From Phycisphaerae bacterium (lineage in GTDB: Bacteria; Planctomycetota; Phycisphaerae; Phycisphaerales; UBA1924), in contig JAUILU010000002.1 of the NCBI GenBank assembly GCA_030432905.1, positions 136,084-200,083 of the forward strand: DNA of 64,000 nucleotides, given 5' to 3'. Below the pieces are notes generated by a model, which was not told where the DNA came from, made no database searches, and saw only the letters and a list, made by a program, of their open reading frames with translations. Below, one piece after another: positions 1,204 through 43,177 of this stretch (the first letter of the stretch is position 1; every line of letters starts with the position of its first letter). A program made the position numbers and the translations under genes.

Positions 1204-2196
1204 ATGCCGCTGGGGGACCACCTCGAGGAGCTCCGCAGGCACCTGATCGTCGCCATTCTCGGACTCGTCCCCTTCCTCATCATCTCTTTCGTGTTCGGCA
1301 GGTCCGTCCTCGAATTCCTCACCATCCCCGTCCGCAAGGCCCTCATCGAGGCCGGCCTCCAGCCCAAACTCCAGGCCACCAGCCCCGTCGAGGTCTTCGC
1401 CAGCTACATGAAGGTCGCCCTGCTCATGACCATCCTCATGGGCAGCTGGTGGATCATCATCCAGCTCTGGCGATTCGTCAGCCCGGGCCTCTACCGACAA
1501 GAACGCCGATTCGTCTACGTCCTCGTCCCCATGAGCTTCACGCTCACCATCGTCGGCACGGCGTTCATGTACTACGTCATGCTCCCGGTCGTGCTCGCTT
1601 TCTTCATCAACTTCGGCTCAACACTCGGAGTCGGGGACGTCACCGCGACCACCAAGATCGCCGACGTTTCCGCTGAAGTCGTGGCCGCAATGCCCAGCAT
1701 CCCCGTCCTCGACGGCGACCCGCCCAACCCCGAGGTCGGTCAGGAGTGGTTCAACTCGCACCTGATGCAGCGGCGCATCTGCCGGGCCGTCGAAAGCGAT
1801 GGCACGCCCATCATCGCCGGCACGTTCTACGAGGCCGCCTCGGGCATTAGCCAGGACTACCGGCTCACCGAGTACATCAAGCTCGTGCTCACCTTCGCGC
1901 TCGGCTTTGCCATCGGCTTCCAGATGCCCGTCGTCGTGCTCCTGCTCGGCTGGGCGGGCATCATCGACCGCACCTCGCTGGCGGGGTACCGACGGTACAT
2001 CATCATGGGCTGCTGCCTCGTCGGCGCCTTCCTGACACCCGCCGACCCGGTCTCGATGTTCCTGCTCGCCGGCCCGCTGTACTTGCTCTTCGAGCTCGGG
2101 CTGATCCTGCTCGTCGTCATGCCCGCCTCGGCGGTCGCAAGCGGGTTCGGGCGCGACAAGCCGGAAGACGGAGCCGACAACCGGGACGAGTCATGA
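1204..2196 (+). CDS. tatC: twin-arginine translocase subunit TatC (with an extra loop insertion)
   Basis: 330 aa. N-terminus MPLGDHLEELRRHLI, SPVEVFASYMKVAL, FVSPGLYRQERRF and C-terminal LTPADPVSM are typical TatC motifs. About 80 extra residues sit between TM helices. Confidence 0.9.
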   Translation: MPLGDHLEELRRHLIVAILGLVPFLIISFVFGRSVLEFLTIPVRKALIEAGLQPKLQATSPVEVFASYMKVALLMTILMGSWWIIIQLWRFVSPGLYRQERRFVYVLVPMSFTLTIVGTAFMYYVMLPVVLAFFINFGSTLGVGDVTATTKIADVSAEVVAAMPSIPVLDGDPPNPEVGQEWFNSHLMQRRICRAVESDGTPIIAGTFYEAASGISQDYRLTEYIKLVLTFALGFAIGFQMPVVVLLLGWAGIIDRTSLAGYRRYIIMGCCLVGAFLTPADPVSMFLLAGPLYLLFELGLILLVVMPASAVASGFGRDKPEDGADNRDES

Positions 2197-2699
2197 CCCT
2201 GCCCCCATCCGTTGAGCCGACCGACACCGATGTCGCGATGATGCACGAGGCCCTGAGGCTCGCCAGAGAGGCCGCCAGCGCCGACGAGGTGCCGGTCGGA
2301 GCGGTCGTCTGGGAGACGGCTACCGGGCGTGTGCTGGGTCTGGGGCGGAATCGGCGCGAGGAGGACAACTCCCCCAGCGCCCACGCCGAGTTCCTCGCGA
2401 TCCAAGAGGCCTGCCGAGTCGTCGGCGACTGGCGGCTCAACCACTGCTCGCTCGCCGTCACGCTCGAACCCTGCCCCATGTGCGCCGGGCTCATCGTCAA
2501 CGCCCGCGTCGGGCGCGTGGTCTACGGCACAGACGACCCCAAAGCCGGCGCGTGCCGAAGCCTCTACGAACTGACAACCGATCCACGGCTCAACCACCGC
2601 GTCGAACTCGTCCCGGGCGTGCTGGCCCGCGAGGCCGGCGACATGCTCAAGAAGTTCTTCCAGCACCGGCGCCGACGCAACGCTGGCGGGCAGGACTGA
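2193..2699 (+). CDS. tadA: tRNA adenosine(34) deaminase TadA
   Basis: 168 aa. CMP/dCMP deaminase zinc motifs HAEFLAIQEA and TLEPCPMCAG. ATGA overlap with tatC. Confidence 0.9.
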   Translation: MTLPPSVEPTDTDVAMMHEALRLAREAASADEVPVGAVVWETATGRVLGLGRNRREEDNSPSAHAEFLAIQEACRVVGDWRLNHCSLAVTLEPCPMCAGLIVNARVGRVVYGTDDPKAGACRSLYELTTDPRLNHRVELVPGVLAREAGDMLKKFFQHRRRRNAGGQD

Positions 2700-2825
2700 C
2701 CCGCTCCGTTAGGCACCCCCAAATTTCAGTGGTGCCCTGCGATTGAACGGTTTTCCCCGAGAAAGCCACACCTCGGGACAACGGGGTCTGAGTTGGCACA
2801 TGGGTTGGCGTCTAGCCGTCAGGTC

Positions 2826-2870
2826 TTTCTTATCTAAGAGATAGATAGAGATCAATCATCATAGGAATAA
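2826..2870. other. AT-rich tract (candidate DNA-unwinding element) in a high-GC background
   Basis: tttcttatctaagagatagatagagatcaatcatcataggaataa has 12 G/C in 45 nt by hand count, against a window that is clearly above 60% GC. It lies in a 510-bp gap between two convergent gene ends. Confidence 0.4.
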
Positions 2871-2882
2871 GCGCTGTCGCTT

Positions 2883-2891
2883 TGTGGACAG
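2883..2891 (-). promoter_or_regulatory. DnaA-box-like site CTGTCCACA (7/9 match to TTATCCACA; close to the TTGTCCACA variant of high-GC bacteria)
   Basis: Plus strand reads tgtggacag at 2883-2891. Confidence 0.35.
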
Positions 2892-2903
2892 CCGCCGGGT
2901 GCT

Positions 2904-2951
2904 GCTTGTAAGCCGAGTGGTTATCTCGGATTACAAGCGTCGAAATCCGAG
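2904..2951 (+). other. two mutually exclusive strong hairpins sharing the segment CTCGGATT
   Basis: Hairpin 1 (2904-2938): GCTTGTAAGCCGAG / CTCGGATTACAAGC, 13 of 14 bp, 7-nt loop. Hairpin 2 (2925-2951): CTCGGATT / AATCCGAG, 8 bp, 11-nt loop. Confidence 0.5.
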
Positions 2952-2969
2952 GCGCAGCGTGTCGGTTGG

Positions 2970-3105
2970 CTGTCGGCCGCGCTCGGCTGCGCGAGGGGGG
3001 CTGTCGGCTTGCGCAACCAAAGCCCAGCGCGCGCTGTCGGCAACCCGCAAACAGCCGAGCGCCAGCGATAGCTTCTGCACCACTTATCCACAACACCCTG
3101 TCGGC
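2970..3105 (+). repeat. four perfect direct copies of CTGTCGGC (2970, 3001, 3034, 3098) plus two degenerate copies upstream (2874, 2959)
   Basis: Counted by eye. Spacings of the perfect copies are 31, 33 and 64 bp, roughly 3, 3 and 6 helical turns. All copies are in the same orientation. Confidence 0.6.
3084..3092 (+). promoter_or_regulatory. perfect consensus DnaA box TTATCCACA
   Basis: cacTTATCCACAacacc read directly. The site is about 0.64 kb from the 3' end of dnaA. Confidence 0.5.
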
Positions 3106-3209
3106 TGACCGCTTCACGGATTCCGGGCTGTTCTGGTAGGGAAATACTCAGCATCTGCACGGCTCGTGCCCTCGGTCCCCCGCCCCACTTACGTCAATCC
3201 GCCCTTGCA

Positions 3210-3719
3210 CTAGAAGCCCTTCTTGATGACCTTGCGGACCCTAGCCAGAACCGAGCCCGCGGTTTCCGTCGCGAGCGCATCTTCAAGCAGGTCCTCGGCT
3301 TGGGCGCGGTACTTCGGGTGAGCCGCGGCCAGGTCGCGGTAGGCGCTGTACGCCCAGGCTCTCACAAACTTCTTCTCTTCTGAAAGACACGACGACACAA
3401 ACCGCTCGACCCGCTGCGCGCGTTTGGTCGGTACGGGGATGTGCTGCATGCACTGCAGCACGTGCAGCCGCGCCTCCCAGTGCGTGAGGCTGTCGGTGTA
3501 TCCGAACAGTTCAAATGCCAGCTCGTCACCGATCGGCGCGCCGCCCTCGTCGAAGTGGTGTTTGAGCAGCCACGTCGAACCGACAGCGAGTTCGGGGTCT
3601 TTTGTGAGCGAGACGATGTTCTTGAGGAAGCCGCGTTTGGTGTGGTGCGCGTCGTAGACCGCGCGGATGTCGTCGGCGGATTTGCCGTCCCAGTCTGCGA
3701 TATCGGATTTGAGGCTCAT
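3210..3719 (-). CDS. DNA alkylation repair protein-like (HEAT-like repeat) protein
   Basis: 169 aa, helical-repeat composition (WLLKHHFDEGG, WEARLHVLQCMQHIP, VRAWAYSAYRDLAAAHP). Family assignment is from memory only. Confidence 0.5.
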   Translation of the reverse strand: MSLKSDIADWDGKSADDIRAVYDAHHTKRGFLKNIVSLTKDPELAVGSTWLLKHHFDEGGAPIGDELAFELFGYTDSLTHWEARLHVLQCMQHIPVPTKRAQRVERFVSSCLSEEKKFVRAWAYSAYRDLAAAHPKYRAQAEDLLEDALATETAGSVLARVRKVIKKGF

Positions 3720-7335: not shown

Positions 7336-9387
7336 ATGAACATCAAATCGATACTCGCCGCCACCTGCGGCCTGTCCGTGGGCATCACCGCCGGCGCTTC
7401 GGGCGCACCCATCGGTCCAGACAACATCAACGGCCCGGAAGACGTCGAGGTCATCTCACGCGACGTCCTCTTCGGCAACCCCGAACGCGCCAGCTTCCAG
7501 GCCAGCCCCGACGGCAAGTTCGTCAGCTGGCTCGCGCCAAAGGACGGCGTCCTCAACGTCTTCGTCGCGCCGATCGATAACATCGAAGCCGCCCTGTCTG
7601 TCACCAGCGACGACTACAGGGGCATCCGCCAGTACTTCTGGTCGGAGAACGGCACGCACATCATCTACATGCAAGACAAAGGCGGCGACGAGAACTTCCA
7701 CGCCTACTCCGTCAACCTCAAAACCAACGAGCGCATCGAGCTGACCCCGTTCGAGGGCGCCCGCGCACAGGTTCAGCAGACCAGCAAGAAGTTCCCAGAC
7801 CACATCCTCGTCGCGATCAACAACCGCAACCCGCAGCTCTTCGACATCCACAAAGTGGACATCACCACGGGCGACATGGAACTCGTCATCGAGAACAACG
7901 AGTACCTCGGCTTCACCACCGACGACAACTTCGACGTCCGGTTCGCAGCCAAGTACGACGCCGAGGGCTCGGTCGTCTACTTCAAGGTTGACGGCACAGC
8001 CATCGCCGAGGAGCCTTACCTGACCGTTCCGAACGAGGACTCGCTGACGACGCAGATCGTGGGCTTCAACGCCGAGGGCGACAAGCTTTACATCATCGAC
8101 AGCCGGACGGGCAACACCGCGGCGTTCTTCTCGCGCAACATGAACACGGGCCAGACCGACCTGCTCTTCGAGCACCCGCTGGCCGACGTCTCGGGCGTGA
8201 TCGCACACCCCGAGACCCAGGAGATCGAAGCCGTCGCGGCGAACTACCTCCGCACCGAGTGGCAGATCCTCGACACCGCGGTCGCCAACGACATCGATTT
8301 CCTCTCCACCGTGCGCGACGGCGAGGTGAACATCACAAGCCGCGTCGCCGACGACACGATCTGGACCGTCGCCTACACCCGCGACGACGGCCCCGTCGAG
8401 TACTACATCTACGACCGCGAGAACCAGAAGGCCCGGTACGTCTTCAGCAACCGCCCGAACCTCGAGGGGTTGCCGCTGGCCAAGATGCACCCGACCGTCA
8501 TCAAGAGCCGTGACAACCTCAGCCTTGTCAGCTACCTCACGCTCCCTTCGTGGACCGATACCGACGGCGACGCACGCCCGGACGAGGCGCTGCCGATGGT
8601 GCTGCTCGTTCACGGCGGGCCATGGGCGCGCGACCAGTGGGGCTACAACAGCTACCACCAGTGGCTCAGCAACCGGGGCTACGCAGTCCTGTCCGTCAAC
8701 TACCGCGGCTCGACGGGTTTCGGCAAAGACTTCATCAACGCGAGCAACTACGAGTGGGCGGGCAAGATGCACGACGACCTGCTCGATGCCGTGGACTGGG
8801 CGGTCGAAGAGGGCATCGCGGACGAGGACCGCGTCGCCATCATGGGCGGCAGCTACGGCGGGTACGCCACGCTCGTCGGGCTCACGTTCACACCCGAAGA
8901 GTTCGCCTGCGGCGTGGACATCGTCGGCCCGTCGAACCTCGTCACGCTACTCAACACCATCCCGCCCTATTGGAAGCCGGCGATGGAACTCTTCAACAAG
9001 CGCGTGGGCGACCTCTCGACCGAGGAAGGCCGGGCACTGCTCGAGTCGCGCAGCCCGCTCAACTTCATCGACAACATCCAGCGCCCGCTGCTGATCGCCC
9101 AGGGCGCCAACGACCCCCGCGTGAAGCAGTCCGAGGCGGACCAGATCGTCGAGGCGATGGTCGCCAAGGACATCCCGGTCAGCTACATCCTGTTCCCCGA
9201 CGAGGGCCACGGCTTCGCCCGCCCCGAGAACAGCACCGCCTTCAACGCGGCAGCCGAGGCGTTCCTCGCCCAGCACATCGGCGGGCGGTACCAGCCGATC
9301 GACGATGACTTTAAGGGTTCAACAATTCAGGTCCCGACCGGTGCCGAGGGCATCCCGGGCGTGAAGGATGCTCTCGGAGCAGAGTAG
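7336..9387 (+). CDS. S9 family serine peptidase (prolyl oligopeptidase / dipeptidyl aminopeptidase type)
   Basis: 683 aa. Signal peptide, N-terminal propeller-like part, catalytic GGSYGGY, DPRV and EGHGF motifs. Confidence 0.9.
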   Translation: MNIKSILAATCGLSVGITAGASGAPIGPDNINGPEDVEVISRDVLFGNPERASFQASPDGKFVSWLAPKDGVLNVFVAPIDNIEAALSVTSDDYRGIRQYFWSENGTHIIYMQDKGGDENFHAYSVNLKTNERIELTPFEGARAQVQQTSKKFPDHILVAINNRNPQLFDIHKVDITTGDMELVIENNEYLGFTTDDNFDVRFAAKYDAEGSVVYFKVDGTAIAEEPYLTVPNEDSLTTQIVGFNAEGDKLYIIDSRTGNTAAFFSRNMNTGQTDLLFEHPLADVSGVIAHPETQEIEAVAANYLRTEWQILDTAVANDIDFLSTVRDGEVNITSRVADDTIWTVAYTRDDGPVEYYIYDRENQKARYVFSNRPNLEGLPLAKMHPTVIKSRDNLSLVSYLTLPSWTDTDGDARPDEALPMVLLVHGGPWARDQWGYNSYHQWLSNRGYAVLSVNYRGSTGFGKDFINASNYEWAGKMHDDLLDAVDWAVEEGIADEDRVAIMGGSYGGYATLVGLTFTPEEFACGVDIVGPSNLVTLLNTIPPYWKPAMELFNKRVGDLSTEEGRALLESRSPLNFIDNIQRPLLIAQGANDPRVKQSEADQIVEAMVAKDIPVSYILFPDEGHGFARPENSTAFNAAAEAFLAQHIGGRYQPIDDDFKGSTIQVPTGAEGIPGVKDALGAE

Positions 9388-9443
9388 AGATTCAGAGATT
9401 TCATCCGGTCATGGGATGGAAGTAAGAGAGACAAACCAAGACC

Positions 9444-9480
9444 GGCCCGGCCTGCGGAAACGTGGGCCGGGCCTTTTTTT
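9444..9480 (+). terminator. Rho-independent terminator after the S9 peptidase gene
   Basis: GGCCCGGCC / GGCCGGGCC perfect 9-bp stem followed by TTTTTTT. Confidence 0.75.
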
Positions 9481-9498
9481 CAGCCCCTACACTCCTGC

Positions 9499-9798
9499 AT
9501 GCCAGAACCGCTCTCAGCCGACGAAGTCCGCACCATCGCGCAGATGGCCAAGCTCAGCCCGAGCGATGACCAGATCGAGTCGCTCCGCACCGAGCTGGCC
9601 TCGATGATGGCGCTCTCGTCGAAGCTCAAGGACGCGGACCTGGCGGACGTCGAGCCGATGACCAGCCCGGTCGAGTCATCCAACAGGCTCGCCGAGGACG
9701 AGCCGGGCCGGACGTTCAGCGCCGAGCAGGTCGCAAAGCTCGCGCCCGACTCCAAAGACGGCTCGATCCGCGTGCCCAAGGTTCTCGATCAGGACTGA
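9499..9798 (+). CDS. gatC: Asp-tRNA(Asn)/Glu-tRNA(Gln) amidotransferase subunit GatC
   Basis: 99 aa. EVRTIAQMAKLSPSDDQIESL...DVEPMTSP...R.DEP pattern typical of GatC. No gatA or gatB is adjacent. Confidence 0.85.
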   Translation: MPEPLSADEVRTIAQMAKLSPSDDQIESLRTELASMMALSSKLKDADLADVEPMTSPVESSNRLAEDEPGRTFSAEQVAKLAPDSKDGSIRVPKVLDQD

Positions 9799-9803
9799 CC
9801 CGC

Positions 9804-11429
9804 TTACACCAGCGTGACGAGCCAGACGATCATCAGGAAGATGGTCGAGTTGTGCAGCGCGTGCGCGGTCATGCACCCAACCAGCGAATCGCGCCACTCG
9901 CGCATGAACGCGAACGCCCACCCGAGCGTGATGATCGGCACAAGCATCAGCATGTCGTATTGGTGCAGGAACCCGAAGAGCACCGCGCTGAACAGGCCGC
10001 TGAAGATGAAGATGAACCGGCTGCGGAAGTGGCGGAAAAGCGCACCTCGCATGATGCACTCCTCGACCAGCGGCGCCCAGACCATCATCAGCGAACCCAG
10101 AACCGCGACCGTCACGAAGTCCGAACTCTCGATCAGCTCGATGATGGGGTTACTCATCGGGGCTTCGACAGCGGTCTCGCCGAACTCGTTCGATTCAAAC
10201 AACAGCGAGCGCATCGCGATCAAGACAAGCGAGACCGCGGCCGCAGCGAAGTACAGAGGTACGCACGCCAGGTACGTCAGCAGCCCGAACCAGATCTCCT
10301 TGAACACACCCTCGGGCGCGACCAGGCCCATGTCCCGGCGCCAGCGCCCGAGCGAGACGCCCCGCACCATCGGCCAGAAGATCGAGAGCACCACGAGCCA
10401 CTGCATGCCGTAGAGCACAGACTCGGGCAGCGTGCCGACGAGCGCATCCGTCGTGATCTGCAGAAGCATGAACATGCCCACGAACACCGCGAAGGTCTCG
10501 AGGTACACGCTCCCGCCGACCGCGGGCGGCTTGAACCGCATCTTCAGCTTGCCCATCGCCAGAAGAATGATGCCAGTGATCAAGAGCCCGAACCCGCCGA
10601 GCAGCGCGACGACGATGATCAAACCAAAGAGCACGAGGAACGCGAGCAGCCCGCCGCCCCCGCCGACAAGATCGCGCCGTTCTGGGTCGTCGTTGTTCTT
10701 GCCGTAGGTCAGCGCGAGCTTGCCGTGCCAGCCGTGGTGGTCGATGAGGCGCTGCCGTTCTTCGTCGGTGAGTTCGATGCCGTCGTAGATGTTGGCGATC
10801 AGGTGCGCATCCTCGTAGACCGCCCGCCGATATTCCGGTTCGAGCTGTTCGCTGTTCTCGGATAGATAGATGATCGTGTACGAGAGCCGGTCTTGCGCTT
10901 CTTCTTCGCTGACGACCTCGGCCGCCACGATCGCGCCGCGGAGCATCTCGTGCGGCGAGACGCTCATGTCGTCGATCGCGTCCATGTAGCCCGCGTCTTC
11001 AAGAGCCGTCGCGCCCTGGTTCTCGTCGATGTCCATCATCAGGTGGTGGAACTTCACCGTGAACCGCGAGAGCAGCCCGAACGTGTCGGCCCGGCCCGAG
11101 GGCACGATCTCCTGCGCACTCGCCTCGGCTTCCGCGGTCGCCTTGATGACCGAGCTCTGCTGGGTGAACACCACGAACGCCAACGCCGGGATCAGGAGCA
11201 ATAGCGTGATCCACCCGGCCTTGCGAGAGCCGGGGTCGGGCACGCGGTCCTCGGTGCCGGGCTTTAGGCGTCGGCCCCGGGCGGGGAGGTAGCCCTCGAT
11301 GTCGTCTGGGAGCTGGTCGTCCCGGACGATCGGCCGCTGATCGGGTTGGTAGGGGTCGTTGTATTCGTCCATGGCGGGTGTTTGGCTCCGGTTTGTCAGT
11401 CTAACCATCGGGCCTTGGGCCGGTGGCAA
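9804..11429 (-). CDS. CPBP family intramembrane glutamic endopeptidase (CAAX protease/Abi type) with a long N-terminal extension
   Basis: 541 aa. The C-terminal third carries VEECIMRGALF (EExxxR), FGFLH (FxxxH) and HALHN (HxxxN). Confidence 0.8.
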   Translation of the reverse strand: MPPAQGPMVRLTNRSQTPAMDEYNDPYQPDQRPIVRDDQLPDDIEGYLPARGRRLKPGTEDRVPDPGSRKAGWITLLLLIPALAFVVFTQQSSVIKATAEAEASAQEIVPSGRADTFGLLSRFTVKFHHLMMDIDENQGATALEDAGYMDAIDDMSVSPHEMLRGAIVAAEVVSEEEAQDRLSYTIIYLSENSEQLEPEYRRAVYEDAHLIANIYDGIELTDEERQRLIDHHGWHGKLALTYGKNNDDPERRDLVGGGGGLLAFLVLFGLIIVVALLGGFGLLITGIILLAMGKLKMRFKPPAVGGSVYLETFAVFVGMFMLLQITTDALVGTLPESVLYGMQWLVVLSIFWPMVRGVSLGRWRRDMGLVAPEGVFKEIWFGLLTYLACVPLYFAAAAVSLVLIAMRSLLFESNEFGETAVEAPMSNPIIELIESSDFVTVAVLGSLMMVWAPLVEECIMRGALFRHFRSRFIFIFSGLFSAVLFGFLHQYDMLMLVPIITLGWAFAFMREWRDSLVGCMTAHALHNSTIFLMIVWLVTLV

Positions 11430-11641
11430 TTGACACTCGCCGCGGGCGCTCTATGCTTTGGACCCGCAGAACCGGATGGTGGTCCGGATTCTGAGGGCTT
11501 GGAAGTCAAAAACATGGGAATCGGCTCTGAAAAGGCCCGTTTCCCCCGCCCCGCCCGGTAGGCGGCGAGATGAACGACCCTCGGCCGATGCGCGTTGATT
11601 CGCAGCGTGTCTCTGTCAAGGGCATCAAGAGGAGCGGCCCC

Positions 11642-12103
11642 ATGCGGACCGAACACGCAGCATCAGCCCGTCGGCGCGAGACGTATGTCGCCAAGGCCGG
11701 GCAGGTCGAGCGAAACTGGAAAATCGTTGACGCCGAGGGCGTTTCACTCGGTCGCCTCGCGTCCGACATCGCCGTCGTGCTCATGGGCAAGCACCGCCCC
11801 GAGTACACGCCGCACGTTGACACGGGCGACAACGTCATTGTCATCAACGCCTCAAAGGTCGGGCTCACCGGCAACAAGGCCGACGGCAAGCTCAAGTACC
11901 ACTACACGGGTTTCCCGGGCGGCCTCAAGGCCGAGACCTTCGGCCGCGTCCGCGACCGCAAGCCCGAGGCGCTCATCGAGGACGCCGTCCGAAGGATGCT
12001 CCCAAAGAGCCGCCTCGGCAGAGTCATGCTCAAGAAGCTCAAGGTCTTCCCCGGAGCCGAGCACCCGTACGAATCACAGCAACCAGAGACGATGAAGGTC
12101 TGA
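11642..12103 (+). CDS. rplM: 50S ribosomal protein L13
   Basis: WKIVDAEGVSLGRLAS.IA..LMGKHRPEYTPHVDTGD.VIVINA is diagnostic. The internal ATG at 11642 is preceded by AAGAGGAG. The track ORF starts at 11570. Confidence 0.9.
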   Translation: MRTEHAASARRRETYVAKAGQVERNWKIVDAEGVSLGRLASDIAVVLMGKHRPEYTPHVDTGDNVIVINASKVGLTGNKADGKLKYHYTGFPGGLKAETFGRVRDRKPEALIEDAVRRMLPKSRLGRVMLKKLKVFPGAEHPYESQQPETMKV

Positions 12104-12138
12104 TCATTTAGGTCCACACCAGACGCAAGCGAGAACAC

Positions 12139-12708
12139 ATGACCGACGAGAACACACAATCGACCGATCAGGCAGCCACCGGCGGCCTGAACCTTTCAGA
12201 AGCCATGCCCGGCGCCGAGCTGGGTGAGGTCCTCCTCGGCGGGCAAGCCGAGGACACATCAGAGCGCCGCATGCGCGAAGCCGTCCCAGCCGACAAGCAC
12301 GGCTGGTGGTGGGCCGTCGGACGACGCAAGAACGCCGTCGCCCGCGTCCGCATGAGGCTCGTCGCCGAGGGCTCCGGTTCGTTCAAGATCCAGAAGACCC
12401 GCAAGCTCTTCAAGGACATCGACACCTACTTCAGCGAGATCCAGGACCGCTCCGACGCGCTCGCACCGCTCAAGGTGACCGGCGTCGAGAACACCATGGA
12501 GATCGTCGTCCGCACCCACGGCGGCGGCCACACCGGGCAGGCACAGGCCATCCGCCTCGGCGTCGCACGCGCCCTCCGCGACTACGACCCGACACTCGAA
12601 GACAAGCTCCGCGAGCACGGCTTCCTCACTGTGGACGACCGACGCGTCGAACGCAAGAAGTACGGCCAGCCCGGTGCACGCAAGCGCTTCCAGTTCTCGA
12701 AGCGCTAA
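12139..12708 (+). CDS. rpsI: 30S ribosomal protein S9 (with an acidic N-terminal extension of about 55 aa)
   Basis: GRRKNAVARV...GGGHTGQAQAIRLGVARAL...RRVERKKYGQPGARKRFQFSKR. Confidence 0.9.
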   Translation: MTDENTQSTDQAATGGLNLSEAMPGAELGEVLLGGQAEDTSERRMREAVPADKHGWWWAVGRRKNAVARVRMRLVAEGSGSFKIQKTRKLFKDIDTYFSEIQDRSDALAPLKVTGVENTMEIVVRTHGGGHTGQAQAIRLGVARALRDYDPTLEDKLREHGFLTVDDRRVERKKYGQPGARKRFQFSKR

Positions 12709-19878: not shown

Positions 19879-22557
<2,679 letters not shown>

Positions 22558-22785
22558 GCGGTCTGGTGTCACGGGTCGTCCTCCGGCAAACACCGGCGGA
22601 CCCACCTCCGCCGGCTGCCAAACACCCATGCAACCGGCGCGCCCGACCCAAAAACGCCCCTACCTGCCCCAAAACGCGGCTACACCATGCCGACAACCGG
22701 ACGAACCGACAGCCCGCTGCCACTTCGACAGCCACCGCCAACCCCGCGAAGAACCCGCCTTACCCGCGTTCCGGGTGCGTGATGG

Positions 22786-27129: not shown

Positions 27130-27816
27130 CTACTCGCCCCCAACGGGGTTGAACAGAGGTCGGCCCGACTCGAATTTCTCTCGCACGCGCTCCCATGAAA
27201 GGGATTCCGCGTGCCCGTCTGTAAACATGAAGTTCGACGACGATTCGCTGTGACGTGTCACCGCGACCTGCGGCGGGATCTCCTCCGCAGCTTCCCACCC
27301 CACGGAGTGCAGGTGGTCCGTGTCGCCCGTGCCCGCCCACTCAACCGCGTACGCGGTCTCGCTTGGGAATGGCACCTGATGGATCTGCCGAATCGCACGC
27401 CGGCGACCCCCCGGGAGCGTCTCGCCAGAGATCGGGTTGTAGTCGATCCCCGGCGTCAGCTTCTCGAAGTGGTCGTTCGTCACGTAGCTAAACGGCCTGA
27501 ACTCGAAGTCGTCGTCCTCCGGGCACTCCTTGATCGCCGGGTCGAGCCCGTAGCCCTCCTCCAGCACATCGAGCCACGAGTCCAGAATCGAACCCGTCGA
27601 ATGACTCGACAGAGGAAAGTGCCCGTCCCAATCGTTCTGGTACAGCGTGACCGACTGGCCCATCGAGCGCATGTTCGCCAAACACCTCAGCGAACGCGAC
27701 GACTCGCGCGCCTTGCCGAGCGCCGGGAGCAAGATCCCGATCAGGAGCGCAATGATCGCGATCACGACCAAGAGCTCGATCAACGTAAACCCGCCGACGC
27801 GCCGTGTGAGCTGCAT
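27130..27816 (-). CDS. DUF1559-type prepilin (type II secretion/type IV pilin-like N-terminal cleavage-methylation domain)
   Basis: 228 aa. GGFTLIELLVVIAIIALLIGILLPALGKARE at the N-terminus and FMFTDGHAESL near the C-terminus. Confidence 0.85.
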   Translation of the reverse strand: MQLTRRVGGFTLIELLVVIAIIALLIGILLPALGKARESSRSLRCLANMRSMGQSVTLYQNDWDGHFPLSSHSTGSILDSWLDVLEEGYGLDPAIKECPEDDDFEFRPFSYVTNDHFEKLTPGIDYNPISGETLPGGRRRAIRQIHQVPFPSETAYAVEWAGTGDTDHLHSVGWEAAEEIPPQVAVTRHSESSSNFMFTDGHAESLSWERVREKFESGRPLFNPVGGE

Positions 27817-27903
27817 GGCTCACTCCTTCGCCTTGGCCGACGCACGCAACACGCGCGCACCGGCTCTCCCAGTGACCAATCCGATTGGAACAACAAACCG
27901 AGT

Positions 27904-28329
27904 TCACACAACCGGTCGGGGCGGCGGCGGCGGCACCGAGAGCGCCGCAAAGACGTTCCGGCGCGCAACAAACACCGGCTCGGCGCAGAACCGAACCCGT
28001 GTGTCTGCCCTTGTCTCAAACCCGAGCACGACCGGCGCTTTCACGCCATCAAACCAGCCCGCGCTCAGCGAGCAGTCGATCGGCTTCCACGCCGGCCCGT
28101 CGGGCTGAGATTCGGATTCGGGCTCGTCGCTCTGGTCGTCGCCCGAAACCGGCGGCTCGCAGCAGCACACGTCCTCATCCGAGCACGAGACACACGCGCA
28201 GTAGTCAGAATGCGTTGGCCCTGCTTCGCCGCCGCTGGCCCAGAACACCGGCAGCGCGGGCATCGCCACCAGCGCGTACCACAGCGCCAAGAGCGCCGTG
28301 AACCAGGTTGTCCGGGCAGTGTGTCTCAT
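27904..28329 (-). CDS. small Cys-cluster membrane protein (cassette A)
   Basis: 141 aa. One N-terminal TM helix, CACVSCSDEDVCCCE, an acidic linker (DDQSDEPESES), and a tail PPPPPRPVV. Homologous in layout to 30767..31225. Confidence 0.55.
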   Translation of the reverse strand: MRHTARTTWFTALLALWYALVAMPALPVFWASGGEAGPTHSDYCACVSCSDEDVCCCEPPVSGDDQSDEPESESQPDGPAWKPIDCSLSAGWFDGVKAPVVLGFETRADTRVRFCAEPVFVARRNVFAALSVPPPPPRPVV

Positions 28330-28384
28330 ACCAATCCCGCCGGCAGGCTTTCACCCGCCGGCGAGTCGTCCTTTCAATGCGAGG

Positions 28385-29089
28385 TCAGCAGCCCGCGTTG
28401 TAGTTCGTGATCCACGCCGAGAAGTCGGTCGGCGTGCACGCGCCGTCGCCGTTCTGGTCGCACTCTGGCGCGCCGCTGTTGTACGCGCCGATCCACGCGG
28501 AGAAATCCGTCGGGCTGAGCACGCCGTCACCGTTGACGTCGGCGAGGCAGTCAACAGGCACGACCCACTCGAGCACGAGCTCCGCGTCGTCCCACCCCGC
28601 CAGCGGCTCGCCCGTCGTCGCGTTGCCGACGTACACGCGGTACGTCGCCGAGTACTCGCCCGGCTCGGTCGCCGAGTACCAGTTGTGTGTCATCGCGCCG
28701 TTCCACTGCCACACATCGCTCGACCCGTCGGTCCCGAGGATCGGCGCGTAGCTGAACGCGTCGTACACGCTCAGCCCCTCGCTCGTGCCGAGGTTCTCGA
28801 CGAAAACGCCCGAGCCCGCGGGCAGGTTGAAGAACCCGTTGGCGAGCCAGCCGAACCTGCCGCTGTAGTACGTGTCATCAAGAACACTCGCGGCACCCGA
28901 GTACATCTCGCCCGGGTACCGAAACAGTTCTACCGGCCCGGTCACCGGCGTCTCGTAGTCGATGTGGATCGCGCTGCCGTCCTGCTCGATCAGCAGGTGG
29001 AGCATCGAACCCCCGAGCGTGGGCGCCTGCGCCACGCACACGCCAGCGCCAGCCGAAACAATCGTTGCCAAGATCAGTTGCCGCATCAT
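28385..29089 (-). CDS. secreted protein (family B) ending in a GC-type dockerin
   Basis: Start MMRQLILATIV (29089). YAPILGTDGSSDVWQWNGAMTHNWY and VYVGNATTGEPLAGW. C-terminus [54 protein letters not shown]. Confidence 0.75.
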   Translation of the reverse strand: MMRQLILATIVSAGAGVCVAQAPTLGGSMLHLLIEQDGSAIHIDYETPVTGPVELFRYPGEMYSGAASVLDDTYYSGRFGWLANGFFNLPAGSGVFVENLGTSEGLSVYDAFSYAPILGTDGSSDVWQWNGAMTHNWYSATEPGEYSATYRVYVGNATTGEPLAGWDDAELVLEWVVPVDCLADVNGDGVLSPTDFSAWIGAYNSGAPECDQNGDGACTPTDFSAWITNYNAGC

Positions 29090-29178
29090 CGTGCGTCCTC
29101 CTGTGCATGTCTCAAACAATCTCAGAATCCGCCCGATCAGCCTTCACCGACCGGGCGAGGAATCACATCAAGTGTCGC

Positions 29179-29817
29179 TTACCGGCGACGGCGCGCCGCG
29201 ACCAAGCCACCAAGCCCGAGCACAGCAGCCGAGGTCGGCGCAGGAACCGCGGTCCAGTCGAGCGTCACGCTGTCAGAGCCGAAACCCGCAAGCGGCGCGC
29301 CGGTGACCGCGTCGCCGAGGTACACGGTGAACGACGCCTCGTAGTCGCCCAGCGCCGGGGCCGCGACCCACGGGTGGTGCATGTTGCCGTTCCACTGCCA
29401 GTTCGCGTCGGAACCATCGGTGCCAAAGAGCGGCGCGTAGGTGTGGTTGGCGCGCATCATCCGCATGCCGCCCTCGTAAATCTCAAGCCCCGCGGTCGAG
29501 CTGGTCATCTCGACCCAGATCGCCGAGTCCTGCGGCAGCGAGATGAACCCGTCTGCGAGGAAGCCGTACTGGCTCGAGATGTACATCCCGTCGAGCACAT
29601 CGGCGGGCGAGGTGTGCGCATCGCCGTAGTTCACCATGGGCAGCGGCGTCGGCTCCGGGTTGACCAGGTGGTCGATCTCGACACCAACGTTCGTGCCGTC
29701 GAACGTGATCAGCACGTGCTTCATCGCGCCCTCGAACTGGGGCCAGACCTGCGCACCGGCGCTCCCGGCGGCGGCAACAACCGAAGCAACACAAACAACT
29801 CTCGTAGCACTGAACAT
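29179..29817 (-). CDS. secreted protein (family B) ending in a PEP-CTERM sorting signal
   Basis: Start MFSATRVVCVAS (29817). YAPLFGTDGSDANWQWNGNMHHPW and VYLGDAVTGAPLAGF. C-terminus VPAPTSAAVLGLGGLVAARRRR. Confidence 0.8.
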   Translation of the reverse strand: MFSATRVVCVASVVAAAGSAGAQVWPQFEGAMKHVLITFDGTNVGVEIDHLVNPEPTPLPMVNYGDAHTSPADVLDGMYISSQYGFLADGFISLPQDSAIWVEMTSSTAGLEIYEGGMRMMRANHTYAPLFGTDGSDANWQWNGNMHHPWVAAPALGDYEASFTVYLGDAVTGAPLAGFGSDSVTLDWTAVPAPTSAAVLGLGGLVAARRRR

Positions 29818-29916
29818 AGCTAGCTCTCTTTCTCTGTCTCTTTCATCCGGGCAGAACACAGCCCGGCCCATGTCAATCGAATAAACAACCAAGGCTTGTA
29901 CGGGCGCAGAACGGGC

Positions 29917-30678
29917 TTACCAGCCCCGAGGATCCCAGAGGTCCTTCTTGCGCTCGGCACTGAACGTGTCTTCGTACTTCATGACCGTCGCGTGGCCGTC
30001 AACAAACACGTACCCCTCGCCCGGCTCGAATCGATCGGTCGCGACCGAGCTGTTTGGGGCGCTGTTGTTCTTCCACGTGTGCGCCATGTGGTGGTCTGGT
30101 GTTCTTCTGCTCTCTTCATCGCCGAGCGACGCGAACAGAATGGTCTCCGCGGGCCTGGATACGGTCCTCTGGTACACGAACGGCTTGGCGTCGTCGAGCG
30201 AGCGCTTCGACGGAGCGATCTCCCGCCACTCCAACTCGAAGTACACACTCTGGCCGAAGCTGTTCACCGGGACGTTTGTCACGGCGATATCCCCGGGCAT
30301 CTGAACCCGCGAGTCCAGCGGCGAGCGGTAGTTCTCGTTGACGACAGCGAGCCACGCCTCTTCTTCGGGCGGGTCCAGCGGATCGAACGCGTCGCCCGAG
30401 AAGTACTCGTACAGCGCGTAGTTCCAGGGGAAGCCGTTCTCGAACCAGTTAAGACGAGCCGAGTGCGAGGTGTTCTGGATCCGACCCTTGTTCGTGTCGG
30501 CATAGAACGTGCTGGCCATCCCGAGATCGCGCAGCCGCGACATCGCGAGCACACCGCGTGCGCGGGTGCGCGCCTTGCCGAGCGCCGGGAGCAGAATCCC
30601 GATCAGCACAGCGATGATCGCGATCACCACCAACAGTTCTATAAGCGTGAACCCACAGGCTCGCTTCGTGCGTGCCAT
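29917..30678 (-). CDS. DUF1559-type prepilin (second copy)
   Basis: 253 aa. CGFTLIELLVVIAIIAVLIGILLPALGKART, and C-terminal YVFVDGHATVM. Confidence 0.85.
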   Translation of the reverse strand: MARTKRACGFTLIELLVVIAIIAVLIGILLPALGKARTRARGVLAMSRLRDLGMASTFYADTNKGRIQNTSHSARLNWFENGFPWNYALYEYFSGDAFDPLDPPEEEAWLAVVNENYRSPLDSRVQMPGDIAVTNVPVNSFGQSVYFELEWREIAPSKRSLDDAKPFVYQRTVSRPAETILFASLGDEESRRTPDHHMAHTWKNNSAPNSSVATDRFEPGEGYVFVDGHATVMKYEDTFSAERKKDLWDPRGW

Positions 30679-38354: not shown

Positions 38355-39214
38355 CCACCCCGCTCCCCGCCAACACCCACTGCATCGGCTGCAACTACGA
38401 CCTCGCGGGCCTCACAGAAACAGCCGTCTGCCCGGAGTGCGCCCTGCCGTGCATCAACTCGCGCCTCGGCGACACGATGTACAACCAGAGCAGGCCCTAC
38501 CTCAAGCGGCTTGCGACCGGAACGCGGCTTGTCATGTGGGCGTGCGCGCTGGCTTTCATCCAAGCGGCTTACATCGTTGTGCTCATTGCAACAGGCAGCG
38601 ATTGGTACATTGTGTCTGTTTCGAACCTAATCTCGGCCCTGGCCCTTGCCTTGTCGATCTTTGGTTGGTTCAAAATGACCAGCCAAGACAATCCAGATCG
38701 GCCAATGAACCGGAGAACACTGGGCATGACAGCTATGCGGGTCCTGTGTGTCGCCAAAATCCTGAGCCTGTTCATGGGGATCTTTATGTTCGAGTACATG
38801 AATCTTGTGCTCGGCTGGACAGCCGCTGCGGTCGTTGGCATGCTGCCAATAGTCTTGTATCTTTCGCTGGCGGTAGAACTCACGAACCGGGCGGTGTCGC
38901 GGATACCGCACCTGTACAACCGGCGCACCATGCTCACAGCGCGCGTCGCCTGCCATGTGTTCGGGGCTCTGTTCTTTTTGTGTTGGACGGTTTACATCGC
39001 AGACATGGAACACGCCCTCTTTGGCGGGGCTTTGTATTCAAATGTATCGACCTCAGAGTTGATAGTCACAGCCACATATGCCTCCCGGCTGGCCGCGTCA
39101 CTGGCACTATTCCTGGCGCTGCTGCATCTGTCTCGGAACCTGAAGACCGTGCGAACGCGTCTGCGTGAGAACGCGCAGCTAGCCGCGCCGCCCGCGCCCC
39201 CGGCCGCCCCGTGA
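38351..39214 (+). CDS. zinc-ribbon membrane protein G5 (one ribbon)
   Basis: 287 aa. Internal ATG of track ORF 38243..39214. ATGA overlap with G4. MTTPLPANTHCIGCNYDLAGLTETAVCPEC plus TM helices, and FGWFKMTSQDNPD. Confidence 0.65.
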   Translation: MTTPLPANTHCIGCNYDLAGLTETAVCPECALPCINSRLGDTMYNQSRPYLKRLATGTRLVMWACALAFIQAAYIVVLIATGSDWYIVSVSNLISALALALSIFGWFKMTSQDNPDRPMNRRTLGMTAMRVLCVAKILSLFMGIFMFEYMNLVLGWTAAAVVGMLPIVLYLSLAVELTNRAVSRIPHLYNRRTMLTARVACHVFGALFFLCWTVYIADMEHALFGGALYSNVSTSELIVTATYASRLAASLALFLALLHLSRNLKTVRTRLRENAQLAAPPAPPAAP

Positions 39215-42200
39215 ATCCTCCGGGTCGATCGACTTGCCACCCACAAGCGTCGCGATCCCCTCGCCGAGCAAACCCGCGGCTTCCTTCACAAACTCGGGCT
39301 CAAGCTCAACTCGAAACGCGGGTTCGGGCGCCACGGTGATCTGTTGGCCCTCGGCCTCGAAGTCAAGAAGCACCGGCACGACCTCGCCCTTGGGCTTCTG
39401 CCCGCCCGGCGCGATCGCCTTGCCCGCGAGGAACCGCTGCAGGTTCTCGACCGTCTGCTTGCCCGTGCCGTTGAGCTTGGCGGTGCGCACCGCAAGGTGC
39501 AGCCTGCCCTTCTCAAGAGGCAGCCCCTCGATGGGCACCATCTTGTCGACGATGATCTGCGGGTTGCCCCGGCTGTGGTCCATGCGCCCGAGCACGAACT
39601 TGGGCCCGTCGTCCTCGAACAGATGGCCGTACTTGGCGAAGCAGTCGGCGAACATCACCGAGTCCGCCGTCCCGGTCAGGTCCTCGAGCGTGACGATCGC
39701 CATCTTCTGGCCCGCGCTCCGGCCGTTGCGCACCACGATCGTCCGCACACTCTGCGCAAGAGCCGCGACGATCACGCGCTTGTCCTGCGGCACATCCGCA
39801 AGGTCCGCCATCCGAAGCTTGGCGAACACGCCCGACCAGTCCTTCCACTGCTCGAGCGGGTGGCTCGACACGTAAAACCCGAGCGTTTCCTTCTCCTGCC
39901 GAAGCGTCTCCGCCTCGCTCCACGCCTCGGCCTTCACGAGCGGCACAACCGTCTGCGTCGCGCCCGAATCTTCCGGATCGGGTGCGCCAAACAGCGCGCC
40001 CTGGCCCGCCGCCCTGTCCGCGGCGAGTTTCTGCCCGGCACTGACGGCCTGCTCGATCGTCGCCACCATGCTCGCCCGCTCGTCGCGCGAATGCACCTCG
40101 TCGAACGCGCCGCTCTTGATCAGTGCCTCGATCGTTGCCTTGTTCACCGTCCCCGGCGGCACGCGCTCGCAGAACTCGAACAGCGACTCGTACCCGCCGT
40201 CCTTGTCGCGTTCGTCGATGATTGCGCCGATCGCCTTGGCGCCCGCGCCCTTGATCGCCTTCATCCCGAACCGCACGTGGCCGCCCGAGGGCGTGCGCTC
40301 GTCGCTCGGCTCGTACACCACCGCGAAGTCCGCCTCGGACAGGTTCACGTTGGGCGGCCGCACCTCGACACCGGTCTTGATCACCGCGCCCGTCATCGGG
40401 TCGATGAACTTCGTCCGCTTGCAGTCCTCGAGGTACGGGATCCAGTCGCTGACCTTCTGCGCCTGGCTCTCGAAGCTCAGGAACGCAGCCATGTAGTGCG
40501 CGGGGAAAAACGTCTTGAGGTACGCCGTCTGGTACGCCACGATCGCGTAGCCCGTCGAGTGCGACTTGTTGAAGCCGTAACCCGCGAACTTCAGGATCAG
40601 CTCGAAGAGTTCGTTCGCTTTCGCCGCTTCCAGACCCTTCTCGCCCGCGCCCTTGACGAACAGGGGCCGGTTCGCGCCGATGATCTTCTCTTTCTTCTTG
40701 CTGATCGCCTTAATCAGCGAGTACGCCGAGCGCAGCGGGATCCCGCCCAGCTCGTGCACGATCTGCATGACCTGTTCCTGGTACACCATCACGCCGTACG
40801 TCTCTGCCGTGAAGTGATCCACGATCGCGTGTACCTTCGGCACAGCCTGCTTGCCGTGCTTGCGCATGTTGTAGTCGGGGATCAGGTCCATCGGGCCGGG
40901 GCGGAACAGCGCGTTTGCAGCGATGAGGTCCTCAAGCCTGTCGGGCTTCATCTCCATCAGCAGCCTGCGCATGCCGCCCGATTCAAACTGGAACACGCCC
41001 GTCGTGTCGCCCCGCTGGAAGAGCGCGAAGATGCGCTGGTCCTTGTAGCCAAGCCGCTCAAGGTCCATCGGGTTCGGGCCGCCGTCGCCGACCTCGCGAC
41101 CGACCGCGGCATATATCTGCTCCTTGTTCAGCGAGTTCTCGATGAGCTGCTTGGCCCGCTCGATCACGCTGAGTGTGCGCAGGCCGAGGAAGTCCATCTT
41201 AAGAAGGCCCATCGCCTCGCACGTCGGCCCGTCCCACTGGGTGACGATCTCGTTCTCGCCGCCGCCGCTCTGCCGATACAGCGGCACCACTTCGTGCAGG
41301 GGTCTCGTCGCGACGATCACGCCCGCCGCATGCACGCTGCTGTGCCGCGCCTGTCCTTCGAGCACGCGCGCGTTGTCGATCACACGCTTGGCAACATCGT
41401 CCGTGTCGTACAGCTTCTGCAGATCCGGCTCGGCCTTGAGCGCCTTGTCGAGCGTAATACCCAACTCTTCCGGGATCAGCTTCGCCAGCTTGTCCGTGTC
41501 GGTCAGCGGGTACTCAAGCACCCGGCCCACATCGCGCACCGCGGCACGCGCCTTGAGCGTCCCGAACGTGATGATCTGCGCTACGTGCCCGTACTTCTCG
41601 CGCACGTAATTGATCACATCCCCTCGCCCGTCCTGGCAGAGGTCGATATCGATATCGGGGTATTCCGATCGGTCCGGGTCCGTGAATCGTTCGAACAGCA
41701 AGCCGTAGTGCACCGGGCAGGCGTTGGAGAGACCCAGCACAAACCCGGTCATCGTGCCCACGCCCGAACCACGAGCGATCGACGGGATGCCGCGCTGGCG
41801 CCCCCAGTTGACGAAGTCCCACACGATCAGGAAGTACGCGCTGATCAGCTTGTCCGACAGGATCTTCAGCTCGCGGTTGAGCCTCGCCCACTTGCGCCAG
41901 CCATCGAGCTTGTCGCCCTCAAGCTCGGGCTCGTCGCCCACGCCCTCGACGACCTTGTGCCGATGGTCCATGATCCCCGGCCCGTAGCGCCAGACCATCC
42001 CCGCCTCGCACAAGAGCCTGAGTGTTTTGTCACACTCAACCGTGAGCGACGCCTGATCCTGATCGGGGTCGTTGGCCGGCTCAAGCTCAAAGTGCGAGCA
42101 GTACGCCTTGAACCACGCGGTCAGGTCGCCGTCAAACTCCTCGTCGGTGACCTTGGGCAGCTCCTTCTTGGGCGGCGCTTTGACGACCACCACCGGCGCA

Positions 42201-43177
42201 TGGTTCGCGTCCTCGGGCAATTCGACGTTGCACCGGTCGGCGATCCGCTGCGTGTTGAGCAGCGCTTCCTCGCCCGCCTTGCCGTAGTCCGAGTTGTTGT
42301 ACTCGGGCCCGCCGAAGATCTCCCACATCTGCTCCGGGCTCTTGACGTAGAGCTCGGGCGTGTAGCGCATCCGCGTCTCGTCGAACTTGCTCTTGCCCGT
42401 CGAGATGCAGATCAGCGTGTCGTGCGCGTCGTGGTCCTCGGCCTTCAGAAAGTGGCTGTCGTTGTCGCACACGATGGGCAGCTTCAGATCCCGCGCGATC
42501 CGAATCAGGTGTGGGTTGATCGAGATCTGCTCCGGGATGTGGTGCTGAAGCTCGACGAAGAACCTGGGCCCCGTCCCCTCGTCCGCGAACACCCGCGCAT
42601 GCCACTCGGCGCTCTCGACGGCTTTCTCATAGCTCGACCGGTCACCACGCTCGATGCCGCCCGAGTTCTCGTAGCTCAACAGGTGCTCGCCCATCTCCGA
42701 CCCGAGGTGGCCGTTGATCGCGATCAAACCGGAGTTGTGCGTTTCGAGCAGGTCGCGGTCCATCCGGGGCTTGAAGTAGAACCCCGTCAGGTACGCCTCC
42801 GAGCACAGGTACAACAGGTTCTGCCAGCCCGTCACGTTCTCCGCCAGCAGCACCAGGTGGTACCCGCCGTCGGACACGCCCGTGTAGGTCTTGTCGAGCC
42901 GGCTCTTGGGCGCGACGTACGCCTCGACCCCGAGGATCGGCTTGATGCCCTCGGCGCGGGCCTTCTTATAGAAGTTCACCGCCGCGTGCATGTTGCCGTG
43001 GTCCGTCACCGCAAGGGCGTTCATGCCCAGCTCTGCGGTGCGTTTCACCAGCTTATCCAACCGGTTGCCCCCGTCGAGGAGGGAGTATTCGGAGTGCAAG
43101 TGCAGGTGGACAAAGGGCTTATCGGACACAGCCGCCCCGCCGCCCTCGGCACCATCATGTAGTGGTTCTTGGCTCAT
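39179..43177 (-). CDS. dnaE: DNA polymerase III subunit alpha
   Basis: PHP domain FVHLHLHSEYSLLDG, then polymerase core and OB-fold regions. About 1330 aa. ATG at 43177 (MSQEPL); a GTG at 43201 is also possible. Confidence 0.95.
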   Translation of the reverse strand: MSQEPLHDGAEGGGAAVSDKPFVHLHLHSEYSLLDGGNRLDKLVKRTAELGMNALAVTDHGNMHAAVNFYKKARAEGIKPILGVEAYVAPKSRLDKTYTGVSDGGYHLVLLAENVTGWQNLLYLCSEAYLTGFYFKPRMDRDLLETHNSGLIAINGHLGSEMGEHLLSYENSGGIERGDRSSYEKAVESAEWHARVFADEGTGPRFFVELQHHIPEQISINPHLIRIARDLKLPIVCDNDSHFLKAEDHDAHDTLICISTGKSKFDETRMRYTPELYVKSPEQMWEIFGGPEYNNSDYGKAGEEALLNTQRIADRCNVELPEDANHAPVVVVKAPPKKELPKVTDEEFDGDLTAWFKAYCSHFELEPANDPDQDQASLTVECDKTLRLLCEAGMVWRYGPGIMDHRHKVVEGVGDEPELEGDKLDGWRKWARLNRELKILSDKLISAYFLIVWDFVNWGRQRGIPSIARGSGVGTMTGFVLGLSNACPVHYGLLFERFTDPDRSEYPDIDIDLCQDGRGDVINYVREKYGHVAQIITFGTLKARAAVRDVGRVLEYPLTDTDKLAKLIPEELGITLDKALKAEPDLQKLYDTDDVAKRVIDNARVLEGQARHSSVHAAGVIVATRPLHEVVPLYRQSGGGENEIVTQWDGPTCEAMGLLKMDFLGLRTLSVIERAKQLIENSLNKEQIYAAVGREVGDGGPNPMDLERLGYKDQRIFALFQRGDTTGVFQFESGGMRRLLMEMKPDRLEDLIAANALFRPGPMDLIPDYNMRKHGKQAVPKVHAIVDHFTAETYGVMVYQEQVMQIVHELGGIPLRSAYSLIKAISKKKEKIIGANRPLFVKGAGEKGLEAAKANELFELILKFAGYGFNKSHSTGYAIVAYQTAYLKTFFPAHYMAAFLSFESQAQKVSDWIPYLEDCKRTKFIDPMTGAVIKTGVEVRPPNVNLSEADFAVVYEPSDERTPSGGHVRFGMKAIKGAGAKAIGAIIDERDKDGGYESLFEFCERVPPGTVNKATIEALIKSGAFDEVHSRDERASMVATIEQAVSAGQKLAADRAAGQGALFGAPDPEDSGATQTVVPLVKAEAWSEAETLRQEKETLGFYVSSHPLEQWKDWSGVFAKLRMADLADVPQDKRVIVAALAQSVRTIVVRNGRSAGQKMAIVTLEDLTGTADSVMFADCFAKYGHLFEDDGPKFVLGRMDHSRGNPQIIVDKMVPIEGLPLEKGRLHLAVRTAKLNGTGKQTVENLQRFLAGKAIAPGGQKPKGEVVPVLLDFEAEGQQITVAPEPAFRVELEPEFVKEAAGLLGEGIATLVGGKSIDPEDSRGGRGRGRRG

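Follow-up and report, generated by a model that had tools for sequence, protein, structure and literature searches.

The window analyzed here, a 64-kb piece with 63% GC from a Phycisphaerales chromosome, contains a gap (2700-3209) between the converging 3' ends of tadA and a gene for a protein of 169 amino acids, and the evidence supports the view that this gap holds a real, selected, non-coding, and origin-like module of candidate protein-binding sites, referred to in the following as element E. The best explanation for E, which is put forward tentatively, is that of an origin-proximal control locus that would be bound by DnaA and co-bound by a putative TGTCGG-binding protein.

All motifs which the initial annotation had listed for the gap were recovered at their coordinates. 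The perfect DnaA box TTATCCACA (box 1, 3084-3092) is the only one within the window, and TGTGGACAG at 2883-2891 (box 2) is an inverted relative of it, with two mismatches to TTATCCACA and one to TTNTCCACA. The AT-rich tract, within which a GATC is located at 2850, is the most AT-rich 45-mer of the 64 kb. The octamer CTGTCGGC occurs at 2970, 3001, 3034, and 3098, with spacings of 31, 33, and 64 bp. Its count across the window is ordinary (7 observed versus 5.3 expected); the chance probability of four copies falling within 136 bp of the same strand is about 4e-11, or about 5e-6 if all positions are allowed for, and the array in the gap represents the sole TGTCGG cluster and the sole phased TGTCGG pairs of the window. 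Two overlapping hairpins, with CTCGGATT at 2925 and AATCCGAG at 2944, had also been proposed, and they are present, the one at 2904-2938 folding well as single-stranded DNA (z = -5.6), but relatives do not conserve their sequence. In AT content, an intergenic stretch at 47944-48186 ranks second in the window, and it has a box-like site TTTTCCCCA at 47963.

Table 1. Positions of element E, its parts (in the orientation of tadA), and its neighbors in the window.
Feature	Position	Strand	Observation
tadA	2193-2699	+	annotation of window neighbors
E, conserved core	2748-3108		profile from 11 genomes, E-value 1.8e-87, single match per related locus; invariant blocks, few indels
Box 3, weak DnaA-box-like site TTTTCCCCG	2751-2759	+	aligned column in relatives
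AT-rich tract, candidate easily melted or protein-bent segment	2826-2870		12 G/C in 45 nt
Three trio-like triplets TTA TTC CTA (3'-AAT AAG GAT-5' on + strand)	2862-2870	-	rules for the basal unwinding system (PMC8287927)
TGTCG site 0, abuts box 2	2875-2879	+	invariant CGACA on - strand; precedes site 1 by 85/86 bp in all lineages
Box 2, inverted DnaA box CTGTCCACA	2883-2891	-	motif search and alignment
Two overlapping hairpins, this genome only	2904-2951		variable spacer; flanking TAA...TTTA conserved
TGTCGG sites 1 and 2	2960-2965, 2971-2976 (span 2960-2976)	+	spacing across lineages; TGTCGG scan of window
Inverted pair, left arm CGCGCTCGGCTG	2978-2989		invariant CGAGCGCG block; pairs with 3052-3062
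TGTCGG site 3	3002-3007	+	invariant CCGACAG on - strand; 31 bp past site 2
TGTCGG site 4	3035-3040	+	32/33 bp past site 3 in all lineages
Inverted pair, right arm, within longest invariant block AGCCGAGCGCCAGCGA	3052-3068		16-nt block invariant in 5 window-clade sequences
Box 1, perfect DnaA box TTATCCACA	3084-3092	+	sole perfect box in window
TGTCGG site 5	3099-3104	+	64 bp past site 4 in all lineages; six bases beyond box 1
169-aa gene (p169)	3210-3719	-	between E and dnaA
dnaA	3730-5139	-	beyond 169-aa gene
parB	56272-57300	-	
Two parS sites	57665-57680, 58544-58559 (span 57665-58559)		inside NUDIX and HK-ATPase genes; outside E

Relatives of the locus were collected by way of DnaA and TadA homologs, and 11 copies of E (window, L001, L002, L009, L075, L155, L156, L159, L160, L161, and L162) were compared. 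The profile of E has one occurrence per locus in the 11 Phycisphaerales genomes, with nhmmer E-values of 1e-49 to 1e-90, and the alignments consist of invariant blocks with variable spacers of fixed length between them. The three box positions, the six TGTCGG-type sites on the same strand, and the AT tract keep their spacing constant to within 1 bp. This includes the phasing of the repeats, whose conservation the initial annotation had proposed to check: distances of 85/86, 42 (or 11 + 31), 32/33, and 64 bp recur across lineages, with minor departures in L001, L002, L160, and L162. The column of box 1 reads TT(A/G/C/T)TCCACA, varying at position 3 alone. Box 2, whose inverted core reads TTGTGGA in the orientation of tadA, appears in relatives as TTCTCCACA, CTATCCACA, or TTCTTCACA, most of which retain a TCCACAA core, and box 3, which reads TTnTCCCC in the window, is replaced by TTATCCACA in L160, by TTGTCCACA in L162, and by TTGTCCCCA or TTATCCCCA in the sister clade. 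E therefore possesses one perfect DnaA box, one with mismatches, and one weak box, all at conserved positions within 340 bp. As DnaA has a canonical domain IV and keeps the base-contacting recognition helix RDHTTVLH, these boxes are credible DnaA targets. In the AT tract, the core AGAGAT(T/C)(C/A)ATCATCA..TAAGC is kept in 11 genomes, and a GC-rich spacer of 12 bp (2871-2882), which contains TGTCG, separates box 2 from the trio-like triplets. The conserved inverted pair consists of GCGCTCGG and CCGAGCGC, the latter of which is retained in the right arm in the sister clade.

E directly follows the stop codon of tadA (or tadA-fpg) in all arrangements. The window clade shares the arrangement tadA(-fpg) > E < dnaA < MBL with L160 and L162, which are more distant. 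In L155, L156, L159, and L161, which form the sister clade, E still comes after tadA and a MoxR gene comes next, and in the two sister-clade genomes whose dnaA locus was retrieved as well (OZ245804.1 and OZ245827.1), dnaA is a neighbor of parB. E is linked to the 3' side of tadA and not to dnaA; the proximity to dnaA that had been pointed out holds for the window but is not a conserved property, and a rule linking E with dnaA was dropped in view of the four sister-clade genomes in which tadA and E are followed by MoxR. E is flanked by tadA or fpg at one end and by p169, dnaA, or MoxR at the opposite end. Among the neighbors in the window, tatC was confirmed along with tadA, dnaA, and parB. The 169-aa gene, which had been described as alkylation-repair-like, matched nothing in Pfam, NCBIfam, or PDB and the name was given up; its product is just 50% identical in L001 and L002 and is absent from L009 and L075, both of which retain E. 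Because the blocks of E are invariant, non-coding, and non-RNA while this coding neighbor is half identical or missing, E is regarded as a DNA element under stronger constraint than the 169-aa gene. In more distant Planctomycetota, weak matches to the E profile were detected just downstream of dnaA (L010 7583-7698, E-value 0.01; L145 1067-1118, E-value 0.035), and from their place beside dnaA it seems that the pairing of E with dnaA may predate Phycisphaerales.

Other conserved or recurrent features were noted at some distance from E. A stretch of ~500 bp (52628-53128) shows 70-75% nucleotide identity in seven relatives and adjoins MBL-dnaA in six sister-type loci; one part of it corresponds to a small gene on the minus strand whose product ends in ...DVTA and by eye resembles the YjfB-motility-like 81-aa product of L163, and in its remaining ~270 bp (52860-53128) no obvious gene and no Rfam match were found. 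Several genes with N-terminal methylation (pilin-like) motifs are present at 27130-30678 (-), in a row of small minus-strand genes otherwise without family match, and in L157 at 9276-10004, and a PilZ gene as well as a further N_methyl gene are situated just past the right end of the window.

E is non-coding and shows no sign of being an RNA. Stop codons occur in all six frames of E in every species, and the variable columns (62/58/58) show no periodicity of three bases, so that a small protein gene in the gap was rejected, its open reading frames being closed in relatives. For the region of E, no meaningful match was obtained in Rfam at gathering or at permissive thresholds (E-value ≤ 10), nor a meaningful tRNA with ARAGORN. 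The RNAalifold consensus fold has an energy of -9.7 kcal/mol for 387 alignment columns; its covariation term is 0.01, and on the other strand it is an unfavorable +5.68. A conserved RNA structure was discarded, as pairing is largely confined to the inverted DnaA boxes and to the GCGCTCGG/CCGAGCGC arms and there is no covariation, and a promoter or terminator was discarded as well, as E has no promoter-like site and terminator-like matches are at chance level. These results give no support to the non-coding RNA that the initial annotation had offered as an alternative.

The cumulative GC skew of the window has its minimum at 57565, 54 kb from E (~2900). Skew of the plus strand is negative from ~7 to 57 kb and positive beyond 58.8 kb in genes of either strand, and a contig from the same organism lengthens the positive side by 10 kb, the skew being positive for at least 16 kb past the minimum. 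No change in the sign of the skew was found at E in 10 genomes with three gene arrangements: the two flanks of E agree in sign in the window, L001, L002, L009, L155, L156, L159, L160, and L161, and in L162 the skew around E is near zero and then positive. As a positive control, box clustering and skew together were applied to the Clostridia loci L051, L052, and L065, and recovered the classical origins that lie there upstream of dnaA.

In a paired test, regarded as the decisive one, the third-codon skew of the same genes was compared between clades. An origin at E would give each gene one skew value wherever the local order is kept. The sense-strand values of tatC and tadA are -0.28 to -0.41 in the window clade and -0.01 to +0.18 in every other E-bearing genome, and those of dnaA range from -0.12 to +0.06 for the window clade, compared with -0.21 to -0.48 for the sister clade, L003, L160, and L162; each value fits forks that arrive from the parB side. 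In every clade, forks thus run in one direction through the genes to either side of E, with a bias of ~0.13-0.22 that is similar on both sides of E in the paired comparison. The distance between E and parB is 54, ~62, ~27, and ~75 kb in four genomes (~3.1-3.3 Mb where the size is known), and gene content of these segments varies among genomes while the sign of the skew is always as expected for forks from parB. The initial annotation had named a skew minimum elsewhere on the chromosome as evidence that would refute an origin at E, and this is what was observed: the minimum lies 54 kb away, and the third-codon skew of each gene fits forks from the parB side. A recent inversion of 54 kb masking an origin at E was also considered and rejected: the window shares the order tadA-E-dnaA-MBL with L160 and L162, the sister clade has an identical succession of genes outward from E, and the third-codon skews fit parB-side forks. 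With respect to forks from the parS region, rplM-rpsI (11570-12708, +) is head-on in the window and co-directional in L162, and in OZ245827.1 rplM, to which a same-strand rpsI is adjacent, is head-on too; dnaE (DNA polymerase III alpha; 39179-43201, -) and clpB (19879-22629, -), situated between E and the skew switch, are both co-directional.

The sign change lies between or beside two conserved parS sites and is ~0.1-0.7 kb away from one of them; the sites are perfect 16-bp palindromes TGTTCCACGTGGAACA (window 57250-58870), and the initial annotation had correctly placed them, together with parB, at about 54 kb from the gap. The same switch at the same parS cluster is seen in the window, L004, L005, L006/L158, and L163, whose ParB is 48% identical; the ABC/HK-ATPase/NUDIX/parB cluster is conserved as far as L163, and the parS sites are ~830-880 bp apart. 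Across five genomes, only parS and two coding blocks of 9-12 nt are invariant at the switch zone. This zone contains no TTNTCCACA box within one mismatch and no non-coding stretch of more than 100 bp, and neither TCCACA nor TGTGGA occurs at 55-64 kb. A hidden origin at the skew switch was rejected, since the spacers between parB and NUDIX (45-100 bp) and between NUDIX and HK (~65 bp) do not carry a conserved box. Low-GC, apparently acquired genes are found between dnaA and parB, beside the switch, in L004 (7500-8110) and L005 (9046-9777), the content of acquired genes between dnaA and parB varying among sister-clade genomes, and a gene of the DciA type of helicase operator (faint or weak Pfam match) is located ~4-15 kb from the parS cluster in L158 (1-50) and L163 (5351-5713).

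According to the explanation favored here, E would be a cis-acting chromosomal DNA site on which a protein complex of fixed geometry assembles. DnaA would occupy the three boxes, box 1 strongly and boxes 2 and 3, which bracket the AT-rich tract, more weakly, and a second sequence-specific protein would occupy the six same-orientation TGTCGG-type sites, which are mostly spaced by whole helical turns. By strand composition, the point of fork divergence is the parS pair next to parB, at a distance of 54 kb, and E would be copied passively soon after initiation; the duplicated E might then titrate, inactivate, or recharge DnaA, a logic shared with datA/DARS of Escherichia coli and the oriC-proximal clusters of Bacillus subtilis, with the TGTCGG-binding factor gating this control. 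With forks diverging elsewhere than at E, its likeliest job would be control of the initiator and not initiation, which makes a control site more likely than a start site. Consistent with such a role, E is origin-proximal, at 27-75 kb from the skew switch, in every arrangement.

Clusters of DnaA boxes that lie near oriC without being origins are known to restrain initiation in a position-dependent manner (PMC3245932; PMC5742627). E resembles the oriC-proximal clusters of Bacillus subtilis (PMC3245932) and Streptomyces in being a predicted intergenic DnaA site outside the origin and near it, for which the logic would depend on position and gene dosage; unlike these clusters, E has far fewer boxes, additional phased repeats, and an origin-like AT tract. 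With datA and DARS2 of Escherichia coli (PMC5742627), E shares the format of a compact non-coding locus of ~200-450 bp with few boxes in fixed geometry, candidate sites for a second DNA-binding protein, and an action that would follow passive replication, in an unrelated lineage. In datA, an IHF site separates essential DnaA boxes that all point the same way, and DARS has a compact core with three DnaA boxes I-III (PMC5742627). In contrast, box 2 of E is inverted relative to boxes 1 and 3, and the boxes of E at 2751, 2883, and 3084 are 120-200 bp apart and do not form a compact core. No match to the IHF consensus WATCARNNNNTTR was found in any of the 11 copies of E, the AT tract included. Because of this, and because box orientation and spacing differ, E was not assigned to datA or DARS.

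Several observations speak against a control site. E is more origin-like than any known DnaA control locus; the AT-richest tract lies 12 bp from a correctly oriented box and contains trio-like triplets; there are three boxes only, which are not co-oriented, unlike the essential boxes of datA; and the skew-switch zone offers no alternative origin. As E is unusually origin-like and the skew switch is less origin-like than any known origin, three rival readings, in which E is a repeat array, oriC, or a second origin, were retained.

In the first of these, which appears unlikely, E would be a docking array for a putative TGTCGG-binding protein with a job other than control of the initiator, for example in local chromosome organization, recombination, or segregation, and the DnaA boxes would be accessory. 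The six same-strand sites with spacing conserved to within 1 bp across lineages form the sole such cluster of the window, and breakpoints of inversion and relocation lie at the edges of E, all of which would suit a docking array; against it, conservation of the three box positions equals that of the repeats, the boxes vary in a manner typical of DnaA boxes, and no candidate gene for the binding protein travels with E. In iteron plasmid origins and the Caulobacter origin, direct repeats in helical phase adjoin an AT-rich tract and DnaA boxes, and E resembles them in the phasing of its repeats on one helix face and in a layout reminiscent of regulator-gated origins. It differs from them in that no initiator or regulator gene is linked to it, its neighbors varying among genomes with none being Rep-like, and in that it lies off the point of fork divergence. 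An iteron-like binding array, also suggested by the initial annotation, is compatible with all findings; E has the phased direct repeats of such an array and no adjacent initiator gene.

If E were the chromosomal oriC, DnaA on boxes 1-3 would open the AT tract, the TGTCGG sites would bind a cell-cycle regulator, much as the Caulobacter origin carries CtrA sites, and the skew switch at parS would have another cause. This seems quite improbable. In its favor, the sole perfect DnaA box and the AT-richest tract of 64 kb coincide at E, origins typically keep their binding sites at constant distances, E is near dnaA in the window clade, L160, and L162 with the weak E-like matches downstream of dnaA in L010 and L145, nothing origin-like is found at the skew switch, and rplM-rpsI is oriented away from E. 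A basal unwinding system, as in oriC with incC of B. subtilis (PMC6669920; PMC8287927), is defined by a box with ≤2 mismatches, a spacer of ≤16 bp, and ≥3 DnaA-trios (PMC8287927). E shows this layout in that box 2 points at the AT-rich tract, across the GC spacer of 12 bp, with three NAN triplets on the complementary strand and further boxes at fixed distances, and the grammar, which is permissive in AT-rich DNA, fits in four genomes (window, L001, L002, and L009) and does not fit in L075, L155, L156, L159, L160, L161, and L162. Unlike a bacterial oriC, E has three boxes only, its dominant repeat is not a DnaA box, and its flanking genes converge. What had been proposed as a candidate oriC holds for its parts, the DnaA boxes, in a small cluster, the AT-rich element beside a box, and the phased repeats being real, but a switch in strand composition is found elsewhere (57565) and not at E. 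Further evidence against oriC comes from the constant sign of the skew at E in 10 genomes and three gene arrangements, from the strand bias of tatC/tadA and dnaA/MBL, which differs by 0.2-0.45 between clades exactly as parB-side forks predict, and from segments between E and parB that differ in content and are always signed for forks from parB.

It is similarly doubtful that E is a second, minor, or conditional origin, with most rounds of replication beginning at the parS region. Besides the origin-like anatomy of E, unpaired strand-corrected third-codon skews would agree with this reading, being weaker on the parB-facing than on the far side of E in L155 (0.12 versus 0.32), L156 (0.20 versus 0.36), L162 (0.07 versus 0.20), and the window (~-0.07 versus -0.25), where the bias grows with distance from E towards parB. 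From this weaker bias in four genomes, E might matter for the direction of forks. However, with a gene-to-gene scatter of ~0.15 the unpaired steps amount to just 1.5-3 standard errors, the paired test, with its similar bias on both sides of E, gives no clear confirmation, and L160 shows almost no third-codon step across E. To our knowledge, natural bacterial chromosomes with two origins are known only from fused Vibrio replicons.

Finally, that E encodes a structured non-coding RNA, or that it serves tadA as 3' untranslated region or as terminator, is scarcely credible, given the RNA, promoter, and terminator searches described above, although E stands constantly directly behind the tadA (or tadA-fpg) stop codon and a small hairpin with a CACAC loop can be drawn near box 3 in several genomes, which is no better than shuffled sequence (z = 0.05).

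Among the papers searched, none was found that deals with how Planctomycetota initiate replication or control their origins. E provides a concrete, conserved, and testable element whose candidate binding sites are mapped precisely, and it exposes a contradiction: the sole origin-like sequence near dnaA and parB lies off the point of fork divergence, and the point of divergence does not look like a DnaA-dependent origin. With a DnaA-box and unwinding module 27-75 kb from the switch in strand bias, these bacteria might initiate replication in another way between flanking parS sites under the remote control of E, or might use two initiation sites of which E is the minor one, a proposition to which we give limited credence. 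Origin finders that use DnaA boxes, proximity to dnaA, and AT content would probably call E the oriC, 27-75 kb away from the skew switch.
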